Part shown: piece after piece, positions 3,887 through 33,173 of the stretch | Layout of the letters: each line of letters begins with the position of its first letter | How positions within the stretch are numbered: the stretch's first letter is position 1 | NCBI GenBank assembly: GCA_047947115.1 | Contig: CP170459.1 | Span: 5,920,001 to 5,984,000, forward strand | Length of the DNA: 64,000 nt | Direction: 5' to 3' | Source: Verrucomicrobiota bacterium | GTDB taxonomy: Bacteria > Verrucomicrobiota > Verrucomicrobiia > Limisphaerales > AAA164-E04 | Notes under the pieces: model-generated | Database searches by the model: none | Seen by the model: only the letters and a program-made list of their open reading frames with translations | What the model was told of the DNA's origin: nothing | Program-made: the position numbers and the translations under genes

Positions 3887-5209
3887 ATGAAAAAGCCCTG
3901 GTACCGCCAATTGCACTGGCAAATTATCATCGGACTGATCCTTGGCGTCCTCTTCGGCGTGATGGCCGCCTCCAAGGGTTGGAGTGCATGGACCCGAAAC
4001 TGGATCAGTCCTTTCGGCACCCTGTTCATCACCCTGCTGAAACTGATCGCAGTTCCGTTGGTATTGACATCCCTGGTATCCGGTGTGGCTTCCCTGTCGG
4101 ATGTGAAGAAATTGAGCCGTATGGGAGGGAAGACCATTGGCCTTTATATTGGCACCACCGCGGTTGCTGTCCTGATCGGCCTGGTCATGGTCAACCTGTT
4201 CAAACCGGGTAAAAACCTGCCAGCGGACACCAGAACCCAACTCCAGGCAGCCCACCAATCCGATGCCACCAACCGCCAATCCGCGGCTGATGAAGTCAAG
4301 CAACGAGGGCCTCTGGATTTCCTGGTGGATATCGTCCCGGACAACGTCCTGGCTGCCTCCTCCAACAACAGTAGCATGCTGCAGGTGGTCTTTGTGTCCC
4401 TGCTGCTGGGCATAGGTCTCACTCTGACTCCGGACGAAAAAAGCAAACCGGTCCTGAAAATCTTTGACGGACTCATGGAAGCGGTGATCCAGATTGTTCA
4501 CCTCATCATGATACTGGCGCCCATCGGCGTCTTTGGCCTGATGGTCAACACAATTGTTACACTGGCGCAGGATGACCTTGGGCAGGTCAGGGAATTGTTG
4601 AGTGCCTTGGGATCCTATTGTCTGGTGGTCGTGGGCGGTTTGGCGGTTCACTGTTTTGTGATTTATCCCATCCTACTCAAATTTTTCACCCCCATCCCCG
4701 TTAGAAAATTCTTTTCGGGAATCAGTTCCGCTCAACTGCTGGCCTTTTCGACCAGCTCCAGCGGCGCCACCCTGCCAGTCACCATGGACCGATGTCAAAA
4801 GCGTCTCGGGGTTTCCGAAGAAGTGGCTTCGTTTGTATTGCCGCTGGGCGCCACGATCAATATGGACGGCACCGCACTCTACCAGGCGGTTGCTTCCGTC
4901 TTTATCGCACAGGCACTCGGCATGGACCTCACCATCGCCGCACAGGCAACTATTGTACTGACCGCAGTTCTGGCCTCCATCGGCACCGCTGCCGTACCGG
5001 GAGCGGGAATCATCATGTTGGTGATTATCCTCGAAGCCATCAATGTCCCCAGTGAGGGGATCGCTTTGATTCTGGGCGTCGACCGTATTCTGGACATGCT
5101 GCGAACCGTCACCAATGTCACCGGAGACGCAACGGTTGCCACGATCATTGCAGCCAGTGAAAACCAACTGGAAGAACCCGAAGAGCCTTTTCCAGCTCAG
5201 GGGATGTAG
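3887..5209 (+). CDS. Dicarboxylate/amino acid:cation symporter (DAACS, GltP-like)
   Basis: AFSTSSSGATLP, GATINMDGTALY and DRILDMLRTVTNVTGD motifs; multiple TM segments. Confidence 0.95.
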   Translation: MKKPWYRQLHWQIIIGLILGVLFGVMAASKGWSAWTRNWISPFGTLFITLLKLIAVPLVLTSLVSGVASLSDVKKLSRMGGKTIGLYIGTTAVAVLIGLVMVNLFKPGKNLPADTRTQLQAAHQSDATNRQSAADEVKQRGPLDFLVDIVPDNVLAASSNNSSMLQVVFVSLLLGIGLTLTPDEKSKPVLKIFDGLMEAVIQIVHLIMILAPIGVFGLMVNTIVTLAQDDLGQVRELLSALGSYCLVVVGGLAVHCFVIYPILLKFFTPIPVRKFFSGISSAQLLAFSTSSSGATLPVTMDRCQKRLGVSEEVASFVLPLGATINMDGTALYQAVASVFIAQALGMDLTIAAQATIVLTAVLASIGTAAVPGAGIIMLVIILEAINVPSEGIALILGVDRILDMLRTVTNVTGDATVATIIAASENQLEEPEEPFPAQGM

Positions 5210-5301
5210 CATTTCACGGAGGAAAACAGGAAACAATTCAATCAGGCCCCGTGTGGATGTAGGTTTGCGCCACTAAACCCGGCATCAGGTATAGAACTTT
5301 T

Positions 5302-7335
5302 ATGAAATGGATCAAAGGACTGCTTTTGGTGTTGTCATTATTGATTGGATTGCCGCTGTTGCTGGTATTCCTGTTATCACGGTCAAGTTCCGATCTGAGG
5401 ACGTTTAGATGGCCAGGGGGAGAATTACTGAGCATTGAACAGGTAACCCACGGGTCCATTCATCGATTTGGGCCACCTCCTTTTATCGGAGGCCTCAAGA
5501 AGGTGCTTAGCTCATTGCCGATTCTGCCATCCATCGAGCATTATGCCACATCCGATTCACTGGTGCTTTGGTTAACACTCGAAGACACGGAACAAGGATT
5601 CATGATCCCGTTGACAAACGTTGTCAAAGTAGTTGCAAGAGACGGCAACGGCAGCCGCTACATCAGCAGCGAAATCGAGACACGGGATGAAAAACACTGG
5701 CGCACCCGACCTTCGTGGGGCGGAACTCAGACGCCCCCGCCAACTTCCAAATGGTTCATTTCCACGGTCACACTCCAGCAATATCCCAAAGGAGAAGATT
5801 CCTTTGAAGTGGATTTACTGGATCCCTATGGAAATGTCGTGCAAACCATGGAGATCCAGAATCCCAACATCACCCAACCCAGCGAATGGGAATGGTCTCC
5901 TCTGCCGGTCGAAATCACGCATGATGATTTGATCATTCGATTTACCGCCTTCACAAACACCTGGGCCATCCGTCATATTGGACAGGATTATGGGGAAATC
6001 CCTCAGTTCAAACCTCACTTCGAATACCTGACCCGGGACAATAAAACCGCTCCTTACTGGCTATCCGACTCAGGAAGCGCTATGGACACTTTCGGAAATG
6101 CAGTGTCCTTATCGGGAAGTGATGCGGGCAACTTGAGTCTCAGATCCAAAACATGGAAAATCACATACGATTTCTACAGACAGGCTGAGTCTCCGTTCCC
6201 GCCGGATCAGGTATGGGAATTGACACTGGAAATGCCTGAAGAAGGAAAATCCAAAACTCTGGAGCTTGAAAAGCAACTGATGGGAGTGCCTGTCAAAATA
6301 TTGAATATCACCGGCCCCAAAACCAAAGCTGTCTTTAAAGATGGCGAACTGGAAAGTGCCGAACCGGCCCAAGGAGCAAACGGAGCCAGTCTTTCCTCCA
6401 GCAGCACCTATGTTGGCGGGAAATTTGTCAGCACCGTGACTTATACGTCCGAAGCCTCCTATTTGGGAGTCCACTTTCCAGAGGATTATCACAAATACCG
6501 AATACAACTGCTGGCAAAGAATAAAAACGGGGACTACGTCCGCCTTTCTTCCAACAGCCGCTCCCAACACCATCACTTTATATCGCTCCAAGTCGAGCCT
6601 ACTGAGTCCAGTGTAGACCTTAAAGTCATTGTCCAACCTGTTTTTCAAAAAAGTTTTATTGTTGAGCCATCCATCACGCCTCCGGTTCACCAGTTTACCA
6701 AAGCCGAGAAAATTCCTGCGAGACCCAACGACGTACCGCCCAGGGCAGTGGATCTGTCGGATTACTATACCCAGAGGCTCGACCAACATGCACACCTTAT
6801 TGGGCGCATCGGAACACGTTCCTACGGGGCCTCGTTCAACTACTACAGTGTGGAGACTGGAGTTCATCGCATCAACGGCCAGGATTGGGATTTACGGGGA
6901 GCTGTGCTCATGACCGGCAAGTGCCTTTACAATTTCTATTTACAGTATCCAGAAAAAATCGAGAGCATCCCCATCTCATCCAAAGCTTCGAAAGTCCACT
7001 TTCTTCATGGATGCCTGTGGCCAGGTCATGAAGGACAGGAGATTGGGAACTACCAGGTTCATTACACCAATGGGACGACTTATACGATCCCACTGATATA
7101 TGATAAAAACATCGCCAATGTCTGGGATCAACCCGGCGAGACGACCGTTTCGGAAATCGAACAGGCGACACTGGTAAAACTTCCAGTAAAGGAGGAGCGA
7201 AAAGGTTCAACTGCAAATTACAGTTACCATTTCACCTGGAACAATCCAAACCCAGAGCTAACCATTGAACATATTGCAGTGCAATCCAATCGAAAAGATT
7301 CAGCTCCACTGCTCCTTGGGATCACCTTGGAATAA
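5302..7335 (+). CDS. Membrane-anchored extracytoplasmic hypothetical protein with a C-terminal beta-rich domain
   Basis: 677-aa ORF with an N-terminal hydrophobic anchor; C-terminal KVHFLHG...IGNYQVHYTNG...IPL...W...WNNPNP pattern. Confidence 0.8.
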   Translation: MKWIKGLLLVLSLLIGLPLLLVFLLSRSSSDLRTFRWPGGELLSIEQVTHGSIHRFGPPPFIGGLKKVLSSLPILPSIEHYATSDSLVLWLTLEDTEQGFMIPLTNVVKVVARDGNGSRYISSEIETRDEKHWRTRPSWGGTQTPPPTSKWFISTVTLQQYPKGEDSFEVDLLDPYGNVVQTMEIQNPNITQPSEWEWSPLPVEITHDDLIIRFTAFTNTWAIRHIGQDYGEIPQFKPHFEYLTRDNKTAPYWLSDSGSAMDTFGNAVSLSGSDAGNLSLRSKTWKITYDFYRQAESPFPPDQVWELTLEMPEEGKSKTLELEKQLMGVPVKILNITGPKTKAVFKDGELESAEPAQGANGASLSSSSTYVGGKFVSTVTYTSEASYLGVHFPEDYHKYRIQLLAKNKNGDYVRLSSNSRSQHHHFISLQVEPTESSVDLKVIVQPVFQKSFIVEPSITPPVHQFTKAEKIPARPNDVPPRAVDLSDYYTQRLDQHAHLIGRIGTRSYGASFNYYSVETGVHRINGQDWDLRGAVLMTGKCLYNFYLQYPEKIESIPISSKASKVHFLHGCLWPGHEGQEIGNYQVHYTNGTTYTIPLIYDKNIANVWDQPGETTVSEIEQATLVKLPVKEERKGSTANYSYHFTWNNPNPELTIEHIAVQSNRKDSAPLLLGITLE

Positions 7336-7472
7336 ACCACAAAAAGTTTGGAGCTTTATGGAGCCATCCCCACGGAGCTCCCCATAAGAAACACACACAA
7401 AAACAGGTACCTTCATATTTATTTCCTTGGTATTTGTAACCTGATTGCCACAATTTGGTCTAAGTATTTTCC

Positions 7473-8162
7473 ATGAATGCGGATCCGAAGTCATTGTTGA
7501 ATTTTTTTGCGGCTCAGAATGCCGAGATCGATATCGTATGGTTCATCGTTCATTTTCTGTTGGCGGCGTTATTGAGCTTCCTGCTCAAGCAAGTTTACGT
7601 TCATTTCGGCAATGCGCTTTCAAACAGAGAACTGTTCGGACGCAACTTCATCCTGCTGAGCATGACCACCATGCTCATTATCACCATCGTAAAATCATCG
7701 GTGGCACTTTCATTGGGCCTGGTTGGAGCCCTTTCGATCATACGCTTCCGGGCGGCTATCAAGGAGCCTGAAGAACTCAGCTACCTGTTCTTCGCCATTG
7801 CCATCGGCCTGGGAATGGGCTCTCAGCAGGCCCTCATCACTGTGGTCGCCTTTCTGGTGGTTGTTGCGATCCTGGCCCTCCGGCATTACACGCGATCCGG
7901 TGACACAAAACCCAACTTGTATCTGACACTGTCCGGTAAAAAAGATGAGGAAGATTGCCTGCCGCAAATCACAAAGGTTCTGACGGATGAGGCAAGTGAT
8001 TTTCGCCTGCGACGCATCGATGAAACCGACCAGTTGTTCGAAGTGTCCTTCCAGATTCAATTCAGAAACATCGAGCACATACAATCCTGTCGAACGGCAT
8101 TGCACCGGGTTCATCCCGGACTTAAAATCAGCCTGATCGATGATCGTGGCATAGGAGGATGA
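7473..8162 (+). CDS. DUF4956 family membrane protein
   Basis: SLGLVGALSIIRFRAAIKEPEEL signature; adjacent to a VTC gene. Confidence 0.9.
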   Translation: MNADPKSLLNFFAAQNAEIDIVWFIVHFLLAALLSFLLKQVYVHFGNALSNRELFGRNFILLSMTTMLIITIVKSSVALSLGLVGALSIIRFRAAIKEPEELSYLFFAIAIGLGMGSQQALITVVAFLVVVAILALRHYTRSGDTKPNLYLTLSGKKDEEDCLPQITKVLTDEASDFRLRRIDETDQLFEVSFQIQFRNIEHIQSCRTALHRVHPGLKISLIDDRGIGG

Positions 8163-8169
8163 CAATCAG

Positions 8170-8892
8170 ATGAGTGTTTCGGATGTAGCGGCCTCAGAAT
8201 CGATTGCCCACGAACCACGCCAGGGTTACCGGTTCGAACGGAAATACCACATTGAAGACTTCCCGCCGGAGGAAGTGGCGATGTGGGTCAAACGATCTCC
8301 CGCATTGTTTTTCGAATGTTTCCCGCCGCGATACATCAACAATATCTATTTCGACACCCCCAGCCTGGAGAATTACCACGAGAACCTCAGCGGACAAGCG
8401 GCACGCACTAAAATCCGGCTCAGGTGGTACGGGGACTTCCTTCACAGTCCTGCCAACCCCACCCTTGAATACAAAATTAAAAGCGGCATGGTCGGTACGA
8501 AAAACAGCTTTAAACTCCCCCCGCTGAACCTTGCGCCCGGCTTTGGCCACGACAACCTTGATGCCTACTGGTCAAAAGGCGATTTGCCCGACACAGTCCA
8601 GATGGATCTGAAAGGAGTGATCCCCACCATGTGTAACCGGTATCACCGCAAATACTACCTTTCAGCAGACGGCATGTATCGCATCACCATCGACACCCGC
8701 CTGGAATTTATCGCCATCGACCGGTTCGACAGCCAGTTTCACCGGCGCCGAATGATGGATCACAGCGTTGTCATGGAACTTAAATACGCTGGCGACATTT
8801 CGACACTCGATGAGCGGCTTGTTAATTTTTTTCCTTTCCGAGTCACTCGCATGTCGAAATACGTCACTGGTATCGAACTGTTAAATAGCTGA
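8170..8892 (+). CDS. VTC-domain (polyphosphate polymerase-like, CYTH/TTM fold) protein
   Basis: RFERKY, IYFDT, KIRLRWY, LEYK, RITID, MELK and SKY motifs. Confidence 0.9.
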   Translation: MSVSDVAASESIAHEPRQGYRFERKYHIEDFPPEEVAMWVKRSPALFFECFPPRYINNIYFDTPSLENYHENLSGQAARTKIRLRWYGDFLHSPANPTLEYKIKSGMVGTKNSFKLPPLNLAPGFGHDNLDAYWSKGDLPDTVQMDLKGVIPTMCNRYHRKYYLSADGMYRITIDTRLEFIAIDRFDSQFHRRRMMDHSVVMELKYAGDISTLDERLVNFFPFRVTRMSKYVTGIELLNS

Positions 8893-17120: not shown

Positions 17121-18506
17121 ATGCGCAAAGAGGCGGAAATCATCTGGAACAGAGCGGTCAAACAGCTCAAGTCCATGCTGAACGAGGAGGTTTACAAACT
17201 GTGGTTTGCCCCCATCGTTCCCCTCCATATTAAAAACAACGTGCTCATTTTGCAGGTTGCAAATGACTTTTGCGAAGTATGGCTGAAGGACAACTACCAC
17301 CAGCTGCTCGAAGAGGTTGTTGGCGGAAATTCGGAACTTAAGTTGGGGATAGCATACAAGGTGGGCACTAGCGCGCCTCCTGTCGCCAAACCCGCCCACC
17401 AGGCCAAGCTCTTTGACCACCTGGAGACCAACAGCAACAGCACCCCCAGGAGCACAACGAGTTCGAGCACCAGGGCAATCCCTTCTCACAACGGGTTCAA
17501 CCCTCATTACACTTTTGATTCGTTCGTGGTTGGAGCAAACAACAGGATGGCTCACAGCGCGGCCATGGCCGTCGCCCAATCGCCCGGCAAGTCTTATAAT
17601 CCGCTCTTTCTGTATGGAGGCGTAGGACTCGGAAAGACCCATCTGCTGCATGCCATCGGCCACCATGTCCTGGCCAAAAAACCCAACGCACGCGTTGCCT
17701 ACCTGTCATGCGAAAAATTCACCAATGAATTTATCGATGGCATCCAGAACAATCAGCTCGTCAAATTTCGCAAGAAATACCGGCAAACAGATGTGCTGCT
17801 GATTGATGACATTCAGTTTCTGTCCGGCAAGGAGCGTATTCAGGAGGAGTTTTTCCACACATTCAACGCCTTGCACGAGGCGCATAAACAGATTGTGCTT
17901 AGCTGCGACAGTCCCGCCTGTGAAATAGACGGGTTGGAACAGCGGTTAAGTTCCCGCTTTGAGTGGGGCTTGTCTGCCGACCTGCAACCGCCTGATGTGG
18001 AAACACGTCTGGCCATTCTGCTCAACAAGGAAAAATCGCTGGGGGTCACCTTGCCAAGGGCAATCGTCGAATACATTGCCAACAACATTCGGGCAAATAT
18101 CCGGCGGCTGGAAGGAGCCCTGCTCCGCGTCACGACATTTGCTTCCCTGACCAAGCAGGAATTAACCATTGACCTGGCCGAGCAATTGTTGCGCGATACG
18201 CTGCAGGAAGAAGGACGTTCGGCTGTCAGTATTGATGTCATCCAAAAGAAAGTGGCCGAGCATTACGATATACGGCTGGCCGACATGACCAGTCGCAGAA
18301 GACCGGAATACATCGCTTTTCCACGTCAGGTCGCCATGTACCTCTCCAGGCAAATGACCGAAAGTTCGCTCAATGTCATCGGCACCGCCTTTGGTGGACG
18401 AGATCATGGAACCGTTCTTCACGCATGTCGTTTGGTGAAAGATCGCATGGAGATGGACAGCTCGGTGCGCCAGGCGGTGCTCTACCTGGAACGGCAGTTG
18501 CAATAG
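17121..18506 (+). CDS. dnaA: Chromosomal replication initiator DnaA
   Basis: YTFDSFVVG, YNPLFLYGGVGLGKTHL, LLIDDIQF, QEEFFHTFN, IRRLEGAL and GRDHGTV motifs. Confidence 0.99.
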   Translation: MRKEAEIIWNRAVKQLKSMLNEEVYKLWFAPIVPLHIKNNVLILQVANDFCEVWLKDNYHQLLEEVVGGNSELKLGIAYKVGTSAPPVAKPAHQAKLFDHLETNSNSTPRSTTSSSTRAIPSHNGFNPHYTFDSFVVGANNRMAHSAAMAVAQSPGKSYNPLFLYGGVGLGKTHLLHAIGHHVLAKKPNARVAYLSCEKFTNEFIDGIQNNQLVKFRKKYRQTDVLLIDDIQFLSGKERIQEEFFHTFNALHEAHKQIVLSCDSPACEIDGLEQRLSSRFEWGLSADLQPPDVETRLAILLNKEKSLGVTLPRAIVEYIANNIRANIRRLEGALLRVTTFASLTKQELTIDLAEQLLRDTLQEEGRSAVSIDVIQKKVAEHYDIRLADMTSRRRPEYIAFPRQVAMYLSRQMTESSLNVIGTAFGGRDHGTVLHACRLVKDRMEMDSSVRQAVLYLERQLQ

Positions 18507-26250: not shown

Positions 26251-26441
26251 ATGTTGGCAAGGCTTCGGCATGGTAGGGCTCACGCTGCTGTGCGTGACCG
26301 TCAGTGCACTGGGCTATAGGAAGACCTATCGTGTCAAACGGATACGCCACGTCAAGGAACGGTTTCATTGACAAAAAAACGCCACCCTCCATATTCGGTT
26401 CCGATAGATGCCAGACAGTATCTCCACCATTTCCGGACAAT

Positions 26442-27431
26442 ATGCTGATCAGATCCGAACCATCAGGATTGTATTGCGAGAAAGGCGACTTTTACATCGA
26501 CCCTTCCCGAGCGGTGGATCGCGCCGTCATCACGCATGCACATTCGGATCATGCCCGGAAAGGTTCTCGCAGTTACCTTTGTTCTACAGCTTGTGAACCG
26601 TTGCTAAGATCCAGACTTGGAAAAAATATCTCGGTCCAGGCGATGGCATATGGAGCCACGACCCAGATCAATGGCGTCAAAGTGTCATTACATCCGGCTG
26701 GACATATCCTTGGATCGAGTCAAGTCAGGGTCGAATACGGCGGTGAAGTGTGGGTGGCAAGTGGAGATTACAAGACGAATCCGGATCCCACCTGCACACC
26801 CTTTGAATCTCTTCGCTGCAACACCTTCATCTCCGAATGCACTTTTGGCCTGCCGATCTACCAATGGCCTGCCCCCGATGACGAATGGCAACGCATGAAA
26901 AGATGGTGGCAGAACAATCGGGATCACGGACTGACCAGCGTGGTGCACGCCTACTCCTTGGGTAAGGCGCAACGTGTCCTGAACGCCCTCAAAGACATCG
27001 AGGCCCCCGTCCTGGCGCATCCTTCCATCATGGAGATGCTCCCAGCCTATACATCACAAGGCGTCTCGTTTCCCAAGGTGGAATTGGCGGATGCCGACCG
27101 GATTCTAACCCACAAGGGCAAGGCATGCGTGATCACACCCTCAACCACCGCCATGGAAAAATCGCTGGGTAAACCGGATGAATGGGAGGCAACGGATGTC
27201 TCGGGCTGGATGCAGGTCAAAAACTCCAGACGCAAACGCCAACTCCCCAGCGGCTTCGTCATTTCGGATCATGCCGACTGGAACGGCATCATCCAGGCCA
27301 TCAAGGCAAGCAACGCCGAACAGGTTTACCTGACACATGGCGACGGCACGCTGCTCAAGGATTGGCTCTGCCAACAAGGCATGTCGGTGGCATTGCTCCA
27401 TACGGGGGACGGTCGTTCGGAAGATTGGTGA
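26442..27431 (+). CDS. Ligase-associated DNA damage response exonuclease (MBL/beta-CASP)
   Basis: GDFYIDP, THAHSDHA, AGHILGS, SGDYK, ECTFGLP, YSLGKAQR, SDHADW and THG motifs all intact. Confidence 0.93.
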   Translation: MLIRSEPSGLYCEKGDFYIDPSRAVDRAVITHAHSDHARKGSRSYLCSTACEPLLRSRLGKNISVQAMAYGATTQINGVKVSLHPAGHILGSSQVRVEYGGEVWVASGDYKTNPDPTCTPFESLRCNTFISECTFGLPIYQWPAPDDEWQRMKRWWQNNRDHGLTSVVHAYSLGKAQRVLNALKDIEAPVLAHPSIMEMLPAYTSQGVSFPKVELADADRILTHKGKACVITPSTTAMEKSLGKPDEWEATDVSGWMQVKNSRRKRQLPSGFVISDHADWNGIIQAIKASNAEQVYLTHGDGTLLKDWLCQQGMSVALLHTGDGRSEDW

Positions 27432-27463
27432 AACACACTGAGAGAACTAGAACCAGGAAATTC

Positions 27464-29170
27464 ATGCAACGCCTCCAACAACTTGTCGAAAAGCTGGACA
27501 CTACGTCGAAAGATTCGATCAAAGTGGAGGCTTTGAAGTCCTACTTTCAATCGGTTCCCCCCGAAGATGCGGCCTGGGCTCTATTTTTTCTGGAAGAACG
27601 CAAACTTCAAACCAAAGTCAGCCTGCGTGTGCTCAAGGAACTGGTGACCACACAAACCGGTTTGCCCTTTTGGCTGATTGACGGCAGCAATCACCGGGTA
27701 AATGATTATCCAGAAACCTTGGCACTCCTTCTCCCCTGGAGCGGTCGAGCCAGCGAACTGTCCCTTTCCACACTGGCGGTGCAATTCATCCAACCGCTTG
27801 CCGGATTCAGCCCCATGGCCAGACGCGACACCATCCGCTGCGCATGGGAAAATCTCAACACCACCCAGCGGGTGTTGTTTAACAAAATGCTGACCGGGGG
27901 ACTCAAACTCAATGTAACACGTGATCAGATCCACACCGCACTCGCCGAACTTTCGAGTGTCTCCAAAAATATTGTGGCAAGACGCCTTGGAGGCGACTGG
28001 CATCCTCAAAGCAGTTTTTTCAATGATCTGATCAAACCCGAAGCGGATCACGAACGGGCACTGAACCCTTATCCCTTCGCCACATCGCAGGAACTGACCG
28101 ATGCCCCCGAATCTCTGGGATCGGCGGGTGAGTGGTTTGGCGAGTGGAACCTCAAGGGCATCCGTGTTCAACTTGTCAGAAGAAAGGATGGATCCGCGAT
28201 TTGGTCGCAGGACATGCATTCGCTGGATGAAGCATTTCCTGAACTCATCACGGCATGCGAACTCTTGCCGACCGGAACGGTCGTTGAAGGAATCATCACC
28301 CCGGCACAGAACGAGGATCCCAACCCCATCACGCCACTCAACAAACGAGTACGACGCAAAAAAACGCCCAGAAAAGAAACCATTCCGATCATGTTGAACG
28401 TTCAAGATGTGTTGGAATGGCGGGGCAAGGACATACGCGAACAGGCATTCACCGATCGGAGAAAACAACTGAACCAGGTGCTCAGCGAGTGGGAACAACA
28501 ATGGAAACTGCATGCCAACGGAGTATCCAAACCGTCCATCGACCCTGATTTTTTTCAACAGGAAATGTTCGCAATCGATGATGTGGTGACTCCGATGCCA
28601 ACGAACGAAGCCCCGCCTCTCCCGTTCCAGGCTTCCCTTTTGGAAACAGCTTCGGATTGGGAGTCCTTTCAGGAACAATTGGGCCAATCGCCTCCAGTTC
28701 CAAGCGATGGAATCATTTTACGACAGATCAACTCGCCATACGCTTCGGATGCCGAAAGCGCTTCCTGGTGGCTCTGGCATCCACGCGCTTACAAAGCCAA
28801 CCTGGTGTTGGCGGGCATTATTCACCCTGCTCCGGAAAAACCTCATGAACGTCGTGCCTATCTTTTTGCCGCCATGGACAAAGGTTCCGCGGTCCTGGTA
28901 GGGAACGTCCAACATGGCATGGATCCGGCCATATCAGAAATGCTGGATGCTTGGGTCCAAAAAAACACCACCAAAAAGCAGGGCCCCGTTCACTTTGTCA
29001 AACTGGAACACGTTTTCGAGATCGCCTTTCAGGAAGCAACACCCGCTCCGCGTTCTGCGGCAACTTTCAAATTGGCGCAACCCAGGATCATGGGCTATCT
29101 GGCAAATCTCACCCTGGAACATGCTTGTCAGATCGACGCGCTAAAAGCCATGGATCCCTCCCCCGTCTAA
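27464..29170 (+). CDS. ATP-dependent DNA ligase homolog (DNA-damage-response type), predicted catalytically inactive
   Basis: N-terminal DBD (DAAWALFF...ETLALL...FNKMLTGG), PYPF and an OB-like VFEIAF...PRI region. Motif I reads EWNLKGIRVQ instead of EWKxDGIRxQ. Alternative GTG start at 27428 overlaps the exonuclease stop. Confidence 0.85.
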   Translation: MQRLQQLVEKLDTTSKDSIKVEALKSYFQSVPPEDAAWALFFLEERKLQTKVSLRVLKELVTTQTGLPFWLIDGSNHRVNDYPETLALLLPWSGRASELSLSTLAVQFIQPLAGFSPMARRDTIRCAWENLNTTQRVLFNKMLTGGLKLNVTRDQIHTALAELSSVSKNIVARRLGGDWHPQSSFFNDLIKPEADHERALNPYPFATSQELTDAPESLGSAGEWFGEWNLKGIRVQLVRRKDGSAIWSQDMHSLDEAFPELITACELLPTGTVVEGIITPAQNEDPNPITPLNKRVRRKKTPRKETIPIMLNVQDVLEWRGKDIREQAFTDRRKQLNQVLSEWEQQWKLHANGVSKPSIDPDFFQQEMFAIDDVVTPMPTNEAPPLPFQASLLETASDWESFQEQLGQSPPVPSDGIILRQINSPYASDAESASWWLWHPRAYKANLVLAGIIHPAPEKPHERRAYLFAAMDKGSAVLVGNVQHGMDPAISEMLDAWVQKNTTKKQGPVHFVKLEHVFEIAFQEATPAPRSAATFKLAQPRIMGYLANLTLEHACQIDALKAMDPSPV

Positions 29171-30951
29171 AACTGCTTGTTGCTCAACCATACGTTTTGA
29201 TAGGGGCGCAGCACAAAACCACCGCGCACATCGTCCACGCCTTCACCACTGATCAGATCCTTCCATGTGTCCGTTGTAATCAGATTAAGGTCCCCCAATT
29301 GAATCTCGATAAAATCGGAACTGACGTTGTTGAGGCAAAAGATGCTCTGGTCGCGCCGCATACTCTGCCGCCAGAAGGCAAACACACGATCCTCCAAATG
29401 CAGCGTGAACTGGGTGGCATTGGGGTGAAACGCCGGTTGACGTCGACGCAGTGCGATCAGTTTGAGAAGCTCTTTGTAAATGCGCGAATGTATGGATGTC
29501 GGCTCTCCCAACAAGGATTCAAGTTGGTCCATTTCCCATTCATGCCGATTGATTGAACGGTTGTGTCCGGTGTGTTCACAGAGTGCGTGATCATTGGGCG
29601 TGCCGAACAAACTGTGAATATAGATACCCGGAATCCCTTCTATCGCCAGCAGAATGGCGTGCGCACACACATACCGATCCAGATGCCACTCGTCCACTCC
29701 GGATTCAAATGTTGCCTTGAACGCATCAAACAAACTGATGTTGATTTCATAGGGTGAAGGGATCCCGCCTTCCGCAGCCCGCCATGAAACCTTGCCACCC
29801 ATGCGTTCCATCGTATCCACCAAGGAACGCATTTCCTGGTCTTCCAACAAACCTTCCGCAGGCCGCAGCCCAATGCCATCATGCGAAGCAATAAAGTTGA
29901 AAAAAGTGGTCCCCTCCTGCGCCGGCGGCATGCTCATCATCCATGCTTTGAGATGCCGGCAGTGCCCTGCAAGCATGGCATGCAGCAGCAAAGGTGGAAG
30001 GGAGAAATTGTAAATGATGTGCGCCTCGTTTCCATTCCCAAAATAGCTGAGGTTTTCATGATTCGGAATATTGGTTTCCGTCATCAACCACACCGGCTCC
30101 GGATACTGATCCACCAAGGTGCGAAGCAGACGCACGGTTTCATGCGTCTTGGGATGGTTGAGGCAGCGGGTGCCGAGTTCTTTCCAAAGATAGGCGATGG
30201 CATCCAAACGAATCACCCTCACCCCTCGCTGCAGATAACCGGCTAGGATGCGAATCATTTCCAGCAGCACCGCTGGTTCACCGAAATTCAGGTCCACTTG
30301 ATCATGACTGAAAGTACACCATACATATTTCACACCAGCATCGGAAGGTACGGGACGTGCCAAAGGTGAGGTCCGGGGCCTGGCCACCTGATTCAGATCA
30401 TCATTTGGTGAAATTTCGATGAAGAATTTATCATAGGGAGACTCCTGGTGCTGGTAGGCCGTAAACCACGGATGGGAAGAGGAACAATGATTGATCACAC
30501 AATCCGCCATCAAACGGAAATCTTCAGCAATCCCTGTCAAATCCGACCAATCACCAAGTTCAGGATTCACGACCTCGTAGTCGGAAATGGCAAACCCGTC
30601 ATCAGAAGTGTATGGAAAAAAGGGCAGAACGTGGACGCCGGAAAAACAGGACTGAAGATGCTTCTTCAAAAAGTCGCACAAGGTTGACAAAGGTTTTTCT
30701 TCTTTTCGTCTCAATGAACTCCCGTAGGTTATCAGGAAACAATCCTGCTGATCCCAGCCCGTATCTGGCCTGCCAGAAAGCATCTCAACGGACGAAGGTG
30801 GAAAAAGTGATAAGACGGACTCTGCCAGAACATCAATCTGACCATCCGGATAAATCACCTCCAGGTGACGTTTCAACCGCTCCTTGAACTCTTCCTGCAT
30901 GATGACTTCTTTTGACATGTCTGGTCTGCAAATTTCAATGGATTCTATCAA
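29167..30951 (-). CDS. GH13_18 sugar phosphorylase, glucosylglycerate phosphorylase (YcjM-like)
   Basis: LITYG, HVLPFFPYTSDDGF, WCTFSHDQVDLN, RLDAIAY, TETN, ASHDGIG and PYEIN motifs; TETN/PYEIN match the glucosylglycerate phosphorylase type. Confidence 0.88.
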   Translation of the reverse strand: MIESIEICRPDMSKEVIMQEEFKERLKRHLEVIYPDGQIDVLAESVLSLFPPSSVEMLSGRPDTGWDQQDCFLITYGSSLRRKEEKPLSTLCDFLKKHLQSCFSGVHVLPFFPYTSDDGFAISDYEVVNPELGDWSDLTGIAEDFRLMADCVINHCSSSHPWFTAYQHQESPYDKFFIEISPNDDLNQVARPRTSPLARPVPSDAGVKYVWCTFSHDQVDLNFGEPAVLLEMIRILAGYLQRGVRVIRLDAIAYLWKELGTRCLNHPKTHETVRLLRTLVDQYPEPVWLMTETNIPNHENLSYFGNGNEAHIIYNFSLPPLLLHAMLAGHCRHLKAWMMSMPPAQEGTTFFNFIASHDGIGLRPAEGLLEDQEMRSLVDTMERMGGKVSWRAAEGGIPSPYEINISLFDAFKATFESGVDEWHLDRYVCAHAILLAIEGIPGIYIHSLFGTPNDHALCEHTGHNRSINRHEWEMDQLESLLGEPTSIHSRIYKELLKLIALRRRQPAFHPNATQFTLHLEDRVFAFWRQSMRRDQSIFCLNNVSSDFIEIQLGDLNLITTDTWKDLISGEGVDDVRGGFVLRPYQNVWLSNKQF

Positions 30952-32213
30952 GCCACATGACGTTCCAAGGCCTCGCCATTTGACATGGGAGAATGACCGA
31001 ACGATTCCATGTCCTCATGAACCGCCCTCGCGAGTTGCCGATGAATGTTGGGATTGGCGCTGATGACTCGATTCCATGAAGGAACAAATGGAGTCTCCAT
31101 GGGATATTCAAGAAAAAGTTGTCCCGCTTTCATCAGGTTTTCAGCAAACAATTCCACGGTGGATTCCTCCTTATGGACATCCAGCTTCAGCCCGTTCATG
31201 ACGGCGTCCTTCCGAAATGATTCTACAAAATCCAACGCCGTGCGATAGTAGGTCGCCTTGATGGTTCTGAAAACTTCCGTGGTAAAAACCACTCCGTTGG
31301 TCGCCAGTTTCCGGTAAAAAGCTTTGCAAATATCAATGGACATTTTGGACAGGCCTTTGTTGGCGTCTTCCGGAGACAAGTCCTGATGTTTATGATCGTA
31401 AACATCCGTCAATTCAACCTGACAGATCCTGTTCACCGAGTAGTTGCGCTTCATCTCGGACAGAATACCGATCTCAAGTCCCCAGTCATTGGGAATGCGC
31501 ATGTCCCGAATCGCGTTTGCCTGAAAGGAAAATTCCCCTGCCAACGGATATCGGAAGCTGTCGAGAAACTCCAGGTGATCATGGTATCCAACCACCTGTT
31601 GCAGAGCTTTGATCAGTGGCGTCACAAGCAAACGGGCCACCCTGCCGTTTAGTTTTCCATCGGCATAACGTGCGTAATATCCTTTGCAGAAGCGAAAATT
31701 AAACGATGGATTTGCAACCGGATACAACAACCGGGCAAGCATCGAACGATCATACGTCACAATATCGCAATCATGCAAGGCCACCGAGGCAAGCTGATCC
31801 ATTGACATGAGGTAGCCCAAACAATACCACACATTGCACCCCTTCCCCAATTCGACCGGAGCCAGATTGTCCTCTTTAAGTTGGTCATCGATGGCCTTGA
31901 GCCGGGGGCCGTCATTCCACAGGACAACATGCTTTTGTGGCAAAACGGAAAAATACTCCAAAGCATGCCGGTATTCCGATTCTGAGGCGCGATCCAATCC
32001 AATGACAATCTGGGAAAGGTAAGGAACCTTTTTGAGTTCATCCAGGATGGTTTGCAAAGCGGGACGTTGCAGTTCAGAATAGAGGCATGGCAGCATCAAG
32101 GTCATGGGATGCTCTTTGGAATAGGTCACCAGATCAGCCTCCATCGATTCCAGAGATCGATGTCGCAAATGGTGAAGAGTCGTGATGATGCCGTTTTGAT
32201 AAAAATCAGTCAT
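30948..32213 (-). CDS. gpgS: Glucosyl-3-phosphoglycerate synthase-type glycosyltransferase
   Basis: DFYQNGIITTLH, GKGCNVW, LHDCDI, KGYYAR, GRVARL, YPLAGEF, DWGLEIG and YDHKHQ motifs; operon context. Confidence 0.85.
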   Translation of the reverse strand: MTDFYQNGIITTLHHLRHRSLESMEADLVTYSKEHPMTLMLPCLYSELQRPALQTILDELKKVPYLSQIVIGLDRASESEYRHALEYFSVLPQKHVVLWNDGPRLKAIDDQLKEDNLAPVELGKGCNVWYCLGYLMSMDQLASVALHDCDIVTYDRSMLARLLYPVANPSFNFRFCKGYYARYADGKLNGRVARLLVTPLIKALQQVVGYHDHLEFLDSFRYPLAGEFSFQANAIRDMRIPNDWGLEIGILSEMKRNYSVNRICQVELTDVYDHKHQDLSPEDANKGLSKMSIDICKAFYRKLATNGVVFTTEVFRTIKATYYRTALDFVESFRKDAVMNGLKLDVHKEESTVELFAENLMKAGQLFLEYPMETPFVPSWNRVISANPNIHRQLARAVHEDMESFGHSPMSNGEALERHVA

Positions 32214-32225
32214 TTCAGTCGTTGT

Positions 32226-33140
32226 TTATTTAATCGAAAGTTCGGTTGGGCCACCTTCACCGGGTGACAGTTCAAGTTGATGCAACAAAGCCAGCACTGA
32301 TTCGCTCCACCCTTTTGGACCGCATGCTGTGGTGTGGTGAACTTTTTTGACAGAGGAATTAAGAGCAGGATTCACCGGGGATTTGACGGCAATTGACACG
32401 TCGGCAGCTTCCAGCATCAGCAAATCATTCGGACCATCGCCAAGTGCTGCCATGCGAACCGCAGCACCGGCCTTGATTCCGAAGTATGATCTCAACCAAT
32501 GCATCGCCTTCCCCTTGTCATGCATGCCGGATACCGTGTAGAACCGTCCCCCTTTCGAAACTTGCAAACCATGTCGTCGAAGTGCCGACCGAAACCTTTT
32601 CAGATCCGATTCCATCCCATCAAAAATCAGGGGCTCGGAAAAATCACGCGTCTGCGCAGCCTCGGCAGCCAGCTCTGAAAGTCCGGTGACTTCCTGCAAA
32701 GCTGCAATGGACAATTCAGAAAAGGATCGAAAGGGAATATGCTCGCAGTTTCGAATGTCCAGGATTGCCATCAGTATGTCACATCTGGGAATTCCCAACG
32801 AGATCCACTGCCCCCTGTGAAAAAACTTTTTGGTGTCAGCCCAGAATGCATGAGGATCGGCCTGTTCAGGAATAAAAATACCCCCGCCATTTTCAACCAC
32901 CATCGGACTCGTCACGCCAAGTAAAGCTGCATAGGACATGAGTTCCGCCCGTGTTTTACTGCTATTGAATACGAGCGGAATATTTAAGCGCCGCAACTCA
33001 TTCAGGGCAGGCAAGGCCTGTTCAAAGGCATAGGTATGGTGATCCAGCAAGGTGCCGTCCATATCCGTCACAACCACCCAGAAATCTTTTGAGCTGGCAG
33101 TGTCTGGAATCGTCATCTTTGGTGCTGTCAATATATCCAT
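32226..33140 (-). CDS. gpgP: Glucosyl/mannosyl-3-phosphoglycerate phosphatase (HAD-IIB)
   Basis: DMDGTLLD, SSKTRAE, ENGG, SEP, GGRF, DKG and LGDGPND motifs; start uncertain (33116-33140). Confidence 0.87.
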   Translation of the reverse strand: MDILTAPKMTIPDTASSKDFWVVVTDMDGTLLDHHTYAFEQALPALNELRRLNIPLVFNSSKTRAELMSYAALLGVTSPMVVENGGGIFIPEQADPHAFWADTKKFFHRGQWISLGIPRCDILMAILDIRNCEHIPFRSFSELSIAALQEVTGLSELAAEAAQTRDFSEPLIFDGMESDLKRFRSALRRHGLQVSKGGRFYTVSGMHDKGKAMHWLRSYFGIKAGAAVRMAALGDGPNDLLMLEAADVSIAVKSPVNPALNSSVKKVHHTTACGPKGWSESVLALLHQLELSPGEGGPTELSIK

Positions 33141-33173
33141 ACTCCTCGCGACAAACGTAGAACAACACACCTA

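Follow-up and report, generated by a model that had tools for sequence, protein, structure and literature searches.

The question of why a DNA ligase gene should be kept once its catalytic residues have gone, directly behind a nuclease gene whose metal-ligand motifs are intact, is raised by a locus of a Verrucomicrobiota bacterium (GCA_047947115.1). The window, i.e., the whole stretch of DNA analysed here, comprises 64,000 nucleotides (contig CP170459.1, positions 5,920,001 to 5,984,000). Within it, 32 nt separate the gene for a ligase-associated exonuclease (Exo, 329 aa) from a downstream gene on the same strand, which starts with ATG, contains no internal stop and encodes a LigB-like protein of 568 aa (Table 1). 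A four-gene cluster of Exo, ligase, Lhr-core and a metallophosphoesterase (MPE) is described in the available text of PMC7826289, PMC7470946 and PMC10140301; the cluster occurs in many bacteria. A 2020 review treats Exo as uncharacterised, and a 2023 paper gives the pathway role as unknown and reports that the isolated nuclease domain of a fusion protein was insoluble. Naturally dead ligases isolate those roles of LigB that are other than sealing.

The ligase homolog, its maintenance and its genome

An initial annotation of this locus, made from the DNA alone, had described a full-length ligase frame with all catalytic motifs eroded. The open frame, free of stops and frameshifts, and each motif were found exactly as given there. 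We scored 11 catalytic positions derived from the consensus of intact-motif relatives (motifs I, III, IV, V and VI), with the roles of these positions taken from the available text of PMC7470946. Every motif is damaged, although the erosion does not extend to every residue, as R234 and R541 survive. Homology to LigB is clear (E 2e-76), the named homologs being from Verrucomicrobia, and the domains PF04675, PF01068 and PF04679 are all matched, two of them below cut-off; the score against TIGR04120 lies under the family cut-off of 400 bits. On sequence grounds, the protein falls outside the active LigB family and has lost the adenylated lysine, the metal ligands and the AMP-pocket residues. Assembly error was considered as a cause of the motif loss and excluded, because contigs from 4 DNA runs of 4 different studies agree, with no indel and no listed variant in motif I. 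The fold appears to be kept, as the initial annotation had supposed: the AlphaFold2 monomer model shows three domains with confidence (pTM 0.82; pLDDT in Table 1), and archaeal and human ligases were the best matches in a fold search with this model.

Table 1. Features of the Exo-ligase locus, with positions in the window
Feature	Position	Strand	Basis or remark
Weak sigma-70-like promoter match (TTGACA-16-CATATT) preceding the Exo gene	26368..26395	+	10/12 matches
Exo, ligase-associated MBL/beta-CASP exonuclease	26442..27431	+	TIGR04122; metal-ligand motifs intact; dN/dS 0.061
LPIY of Exo (residues 137-140), in the middle of the predicted contact with the dead ligase	26850..26861	+	Lowest-error contacts in the complex model
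Full-length, catalytically dead LigB homolog, DBD-NTase-OB	27464..29170	+	TIGR04120 258 bits; 2/11 catalytic residues; pLDDT 89.9
N-terminal helical domain of the dead ligase, residues 1-195	27464..28048	+	dN/dS 0.053, lowest in the protein; 37/195 clade columns invariant
Predicted Exo-binding surface, dead-ligase residues 9-22 and 65-94, in the N-terminal domain		+	Interface list of the complex model
Motif I, EWNLKGIRVQ, from residue 227	28142..28171	+	Sequence; adenylated Lys to Asn (codon 28148-28150), Asp to Lys
Motif III, VVEGII, residue 273 (canonical VLDGEI)	28280..28297	+	Alignment
NTase-domain segment 340-392, containing an insert of ~35-40 aa	28481..28639	+	53 residues vs about 7-20 in insert-less ligases
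Low-confidence loop of the insert, residues 351-380		+	pLDDT 59-66
QQEMF, putative beta-clamp-type motif, residues 365-369	28556..28570	+	Sequence; invariant in the clade
Motifs IV (DGIILR, residue 415) and V (WWLWH, residue 435)	28706..28780	+	Motif V without both lysines
OB domain	28790..29167	+	Fold kept; DNA-contact loops eroded; dN/dS 0.205
Motif VI, LAQPRI (for LRFPRI), residue 537, within the eroded OB domain		+	Sequence

The upstream nuclease scores 401.7 bits against TIGR04122, above the cut-off of 325 (the 'cisplatin damage response' in the family name is an NCBIfam label), and it retains HAHSDH, GH, GD, SDH and THG, which bears out the earlier claim that all of its metal ligands are present.

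The dead ligase also proved to be maintained. Between this genome and its nearest relative (77% identical), its dN/dS, calculated by our own NG86 script, is 0.119 (bootstrap CI 0.09-0.15), and Exo gives the value in Table 1 for the same comparison. Along the ligase, the ratio is lowest in the N-terminal domain and then passes through 0.095, 0.146 (insert) and 0.205 to the value of the OB domain. The gene is present in 7/7 genus-mates and 3/3 genomes of the sister genus, with Exo directly upstream in nine of these ten and the tenth copy at a contig end. The initial annotation had asked whether the change from Lys to Asn is conserved in relatives under selection; the lysine is lost in all 10 closest genomes, each of which has other residues at its position. 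These substitution ratios indicate that the dead ligase is under purifying selection rather than a decaying pseudogene.

The genome is a single contig and 95.8% complete. A second ATP-dependent ligase was sought and none was found, this gene giving the only PF01068 match, and no extra PF01068 match was detected in the 10 other genomes of the genus and sister genus; the genome has one NAD-dependent LigA (807 bits) and one DnaN. The absence of Lhr-core and MPE, as asserted in the initial annotation, is upheld in this genome, where the best Lhr-core score was 79 bits against a cut-off of 850 and the MPE profile gave no match. Their loss is nevertheless not the defining event. Across the order, Lhr-core is matched in 19/33 genomes with intact-motif ligases vs 7/29 with dead ones, and two dead forms occupy a full four-gene cluster; because genomes with intact forms often gave no Lhr-core match (14 of the 33) and these two dead forms keep the whole cluster, Lhr-core loss is not the trigger of inactivation. 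No significant association between the two was found with 3 independent pairs. Two other arrangements were observed: Lhr-core and MPE form a two-gene unit apart from Exo and ligase at L109-L113 (G004, G010, G008, G030 and G044, respectively), and genome G137 has an intact Exo-LigB pair plus a second pair with a dead ligase (L073 and L076).

Scans for promoters and terminators around the locus stayed at chance level (3 promoter sites vs 2.8 expected). A LexA-type SOS box, in the form that we take to be the Verrucomicrobia consensus and with at most one mismatch, was present upstream of only 1/54 Exos and not upstream of this one. The stretch is contained in 6 RNA runs, four of which were examined as contigs; one of them spans the opposite-strand neighbour continuously, so DNA carry-over is possible. 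A convergent cluster at window positions 29167-33170 (-), with genes for a GH13 sucrose-phosphorylase-like protein, a glucosyl-3-phosphoglycerate synthase-like protein and a phosphatase, probably serves compatible-solute metabolism; the stop codons of its last gene and of the dead ligase overlap. Elsewhere in the window, a DnaA-like ORF, recognised by its translation, lies at 17121-18506 (+) without dnaN behind it, dnaN being located at G000:C1:1113460.

Repeated loss of catalytic residues beside the same nuclease

To estimate how common such proteins are, we surveyed the order to which this bacterium belongs, leaving genome G254 out of all locus counts. Among 62 non-fused LigB loci, 33 retain all scorable catalytic residues and 29 are eroded, 24 of the latter without the lysine. 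An even sample of the order (301 genomes) contained 51 loci, 32 intact vs 19 eroded. Outside the order, the 30 best loci of a phylum sample included 20 non-fused ones, of which a single one was eroded and one was a fragment. A further profile search gave 146 new cluster representatives, 71 eroded and 33 lysine-less; since dead forms had contributed most of the sequences in the profile, these figures are not a frequency. One eroded representative comes from a Bacteroidetes genome, where it lies directly behind an Exo gene, and in the order of that genome erosion was seen in 2 of the 30 best loci. Nothing new came from a second homolog search that used an alignment.

The distribution on trees points in the same direction. 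At least nine changes of state are needed on the Exo tree and at least five on a ligase tree built without the motif columns, in which dead forms sit on long branches; both are quick trees. Dead forms evolve faster than intact ligases. A single origin of the dead forms was examined on the quick Exo tree and rejected, a single clade of dead-partnered Exos having a p-AU of 1e-4. Taken from trees and alignments, the erosion of LigB catalysis beside the same nuclease arose repeatedly and independently. Four insert-less proteins (P0013, P0014, P0022 and L157 of G348) have Met or Ile in place of the motif I lysine with most other motifs present, and their sequences place them at an early stage of erosion.

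Predicted exonuclease contact and the insert motif

Complex prediction for Exo and the dead ligase gave a score of 0.86 in all 3 runs and 0.01 for the best control, a pass that may describe the family rather than this copy because the alignments contained many intact ligases. The mark used for such scores was reached by 116/157 solved and 2/215 mismatched pairs, and is rough here as our own alignments were used. The runs share at least 91% of contacts, with a partner pLDDT of at least 81, and the predicted interface places the ligase surface listed in Table 1 against Exo residues 137-144, 258-271 and 304-311. Since searches of the PDB gave no bacterial LigB and no close Exo homolog, only the distant Exo relatives CPSF73 and SNM1A, it is unlikely that the model was recalling a solved complex. 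It is thus predicted that the dead ligase binds Exo through its N-terminal domain, which lends support to the part of the initial annotation that saw in it a scaffold for the nuclease.

The conservation of this surface was examined in 71 eroded vs 73 intact cluster representatives, the eroded ones having been retrieved after the complex prediction. The intact consensus is kept at 0.76 of the predicted Exo-contact positions in eroded and 0.81 in intact representatives, although some of these positions may double as structural; the values are 0.92 and 0.92 for structural positions, 0.57 vs 1.00 for catalytic positions and 0.39 vs 0.92 for AMP-pocket positions. On the Exo side, the xP[IV]Y motif at the interface centre is found in 29/29 Exos beside intact ligases, in 23/26 beside dead ligases and in 0/5 orphan Exos, which come from 3 lineages and in which the change is mostly a mild Tyr-to-Phe replacement. 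A ligase partner does not seem to be obligatory for Exo, because the five genomes in question keep it without any LigB-like gene. Among the orphan Exos, the most altered interface is seen in L126 (G222, 4750-8237, -), where a gene for a DinG/XPD-like helicase follows Exo in place of the ligase. Within the clade studied here, the interface columns are no better conserved than the rest of the N-terminal domain (0.67 vs 0.71, p = 0.86). Agreement of this Exo with the wider interface consensus reaches only 0.62, similar to some orphan Exos.

The second candidate contact concerns the insert. The available text of PMC11139829 gives QL(S/D)LF as the beta-clamp consensus, with a usually aliphatic position 2, and QADMF for E. 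coli Pol III alpha. QQEMF resembles this consensus in the first Gln, the final Met/Leu-Phe and its place in a flexible internal loop, where a conserved Q-x-x-[LM]-[FL] motif is indeed found, and it differs in having Gln at position 2. The MutS of the same genome ends in QLDLF. A pattern of the type Q-x-[DE]-[LM]-F, chosen with the data already in view, was scored in the insert and was present in 27/28 scorable dead forms and 14/33 intact-motif ligases, against a background of 5 matches in 44,694 residues outside the insert. The insert itself occurs in 30/33 intact-motif ligases. The motif is where the initial annotation had placed it, but it was not gained by the dead form: because intact-motif ligases carry both insert and motif, the insert predates inactivation. 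No significant association between inactivation and clamp motif was found with 3 independent pairs.

The motif appears to be under selection as a clamp-type element, as suggested by 17 clade sequences in which all 5 residues of QQEMF are invariant, together with the N-terminal columns counted in Table 1, 6/118 OB columns and 0/11 catalytic columns. Among the 68 scorable eroded representatives, 17 have a long insert and 51 have none, and the pattern is found in 13, in one case outside an insert; since so few carry insert or pattern, the clamp link would be lineage-specific and Exo binding the common factor. Two further motifs were noted. In one clade of intact ligases (L047, L062, L063, L075, L087 and L089), ETPLL(P/I/C/T)G, possibly a non-canonical clamp motif, replaces the QxDLF-type motif of the insert. 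In addition, eleven ORFs with a common N-terminus (G000:C1:311572-312969 and 10 more), of which the one scanned is IS1182-like, have QQELF at residue 10, likely a clamp motif in a transposase.

Explanations for the dead ligase and known systems

Considering these observations together, we lean towards the view that this LigB-derived pseudoenzyme is an adaptor subunit, which partners the adjacent exonuclease and likely tethers both proteins to the beta sliding clamp through its own QQEMF loop. In such a module, the N-terminal domain of the dead ligase is predicted to bind Exo, the QQEMF loop would dock the Exo-ligase pair on DnaN, and the dead ligase itself might grip DNA weakly; Exo could then trim damaged DNA ends at clamp-marked sites, and the NAD-dependent LigA would do the sealing. 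The binding of Exo looks like an ancestral second job of LigB that outlived catalysis, with clamp tethering added in this order. A broader proposal, which we put forward tentatively and hold as somewhat short of an even chance, is that LigB had two jobs, as a ligase and as the partner of an SNM1-like exonuclease, of which many lineages kept only the second, and that in this order the dead ligase became a nuclease-to-clamp adaptor, giving a clamp-loaded, two-subunit repair exonuclease without a ligase, helicase or phosphoesterase of its own.

It is rather unlikely, in our judgement, that nothing was gained and that the dead protein is simply an entrenched stabiliser, on which Exo depends for folding or activity and whose clamp motif is an inherited leftover. 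The age of the insert, its absence from most eroded representatives, the long branches of dead forms and the existence of orphan Exos are in line with such a state, whereas QQEMF is invariant across sequences only about 35% identical, and dN/dS stays at 0.1-0.2 in the NTase and OB domains, even though the predicted contact with Exo involves the N-terminal domain alone.

The chances are smaller still that the three-domain ring encircles DNA and presents nicks or ends to Exo, comparable to the non-catalytic role of Lig4, which was the nick-binding half of the initial annotation. The retention of all three domains and of the fold, some remaining basic residues (K141, R174, R240, R332 and R530) and, in the available text of PMC10858965, the support of synapsis by catalytically inactive Lig4 speak for such a scaffold. 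For the opposite side, we relied on sets of residues that we take to contact DNA, assigned by us from ligase structures and a general statement in PMC7470946. Erosion has gone as far at these assigned residues as at the catalytic ones, which makes nick binding look unlikely: all 10 clade genomes have lost F289, F539 and the greater part of the GHGRR and KAYSG loops, only 1% of the 71 eroded representatives retain F539 and 7% retain Y483, and the DNA-contact positions are kept at 0.37 in eroded vs 0.94 in intact representatives for the OB domain and at 0.34 vs 0.69 for the N-terminal domain.

Slow decay towards loss of the gene is very improbable and, from the substitution ratios, largely refuted for this clade. 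The faster evolution of dead forms, the damaged copies in G005 (frame shifted by one base within an A run) and G060 (no OB match), the complete loss of the ligase gene in 5 genomes and the G010-G012 pair, whose dN/dS is 0.53 with a CI reaching 1, would agree with decay; they are opposed by dN/dS values of 0.12-0.35 with a CI below 1 in 10/11 dead-dead pairs, not all of them independent, and by a frame that stays open in 8/9 other complete copies of the genus and sister genus at 33-77% identity. That the protein is still a ligase, using the lysine two residues downstream in NLKG (K231, a motif I residue that the nearest relatives share), can be practically dismissed, as other members of the genus have R, D, E, Q or N there and the metal ligands, the adenine-stacking aromatic residue and the motif V lysines are gone.

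Dead ligases suggest a specific heterodimer of Exo and ligase, for which individual contact residues are predicted, offer co-expression as a possible route to active Exo, and would connect the module with the sliding clamp in a single lineage. Furthermore, many metagenome genes labelled 'DNA ligase-1' cannot ligate. The pair of Exo and a dead LigB is a real and new version of a known module: searches of the main texts of papers, for the most part outside the subscription journals, returned none on a LigB inactivated in nature, a complex of Exo with LigB or a LigB clamp motif.

In comparison with the active LigB of the four-gene cluster, the dead ligase has the same domain order, the same gene order (Exo, then ligase) and an intact Exo, and it differs by the loss of 9/11 catalytic residues, a score below the family cut-off, the clamp-type insert and a genome in which neither Lhr-core nor MPE was found; characterised LigB enzymes seal nicks by themselves. 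An MBL nuclease is likewise physically tied to a LigB-type ligase in the Exo-ligase fusion proteins of Opitutus terrae and a Dry Valley metagenome, as given in the available text of PMC10140301. The 11 fusion loci examined in this order differ in keeping all 11 catalytic residues, in belonging to a distant subfamily, and also at the predicted contact surface, where the residue equivalent to L88 is Glu in 11/11. Human Lig4 offers a more distant parallel, and its structure (PDB 3w1g) was among the fold-search matches. The tail peptide of the MBL/beta-CASP nuclease Artemis binds the DBD of Lig4. According to the available text of PMC10858965, Lig4 is an otherwise active ligase with a non-catalytic role in NHEJ. 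As predicted for the dead LigB, Lig4 is bound to a nuclease of this fold, but Lig4 remains catalytically active and needs DNA binding for its structural role, whereas the dead LigB has lost catalysis naturally and is predicted to contact a folded nuclease.
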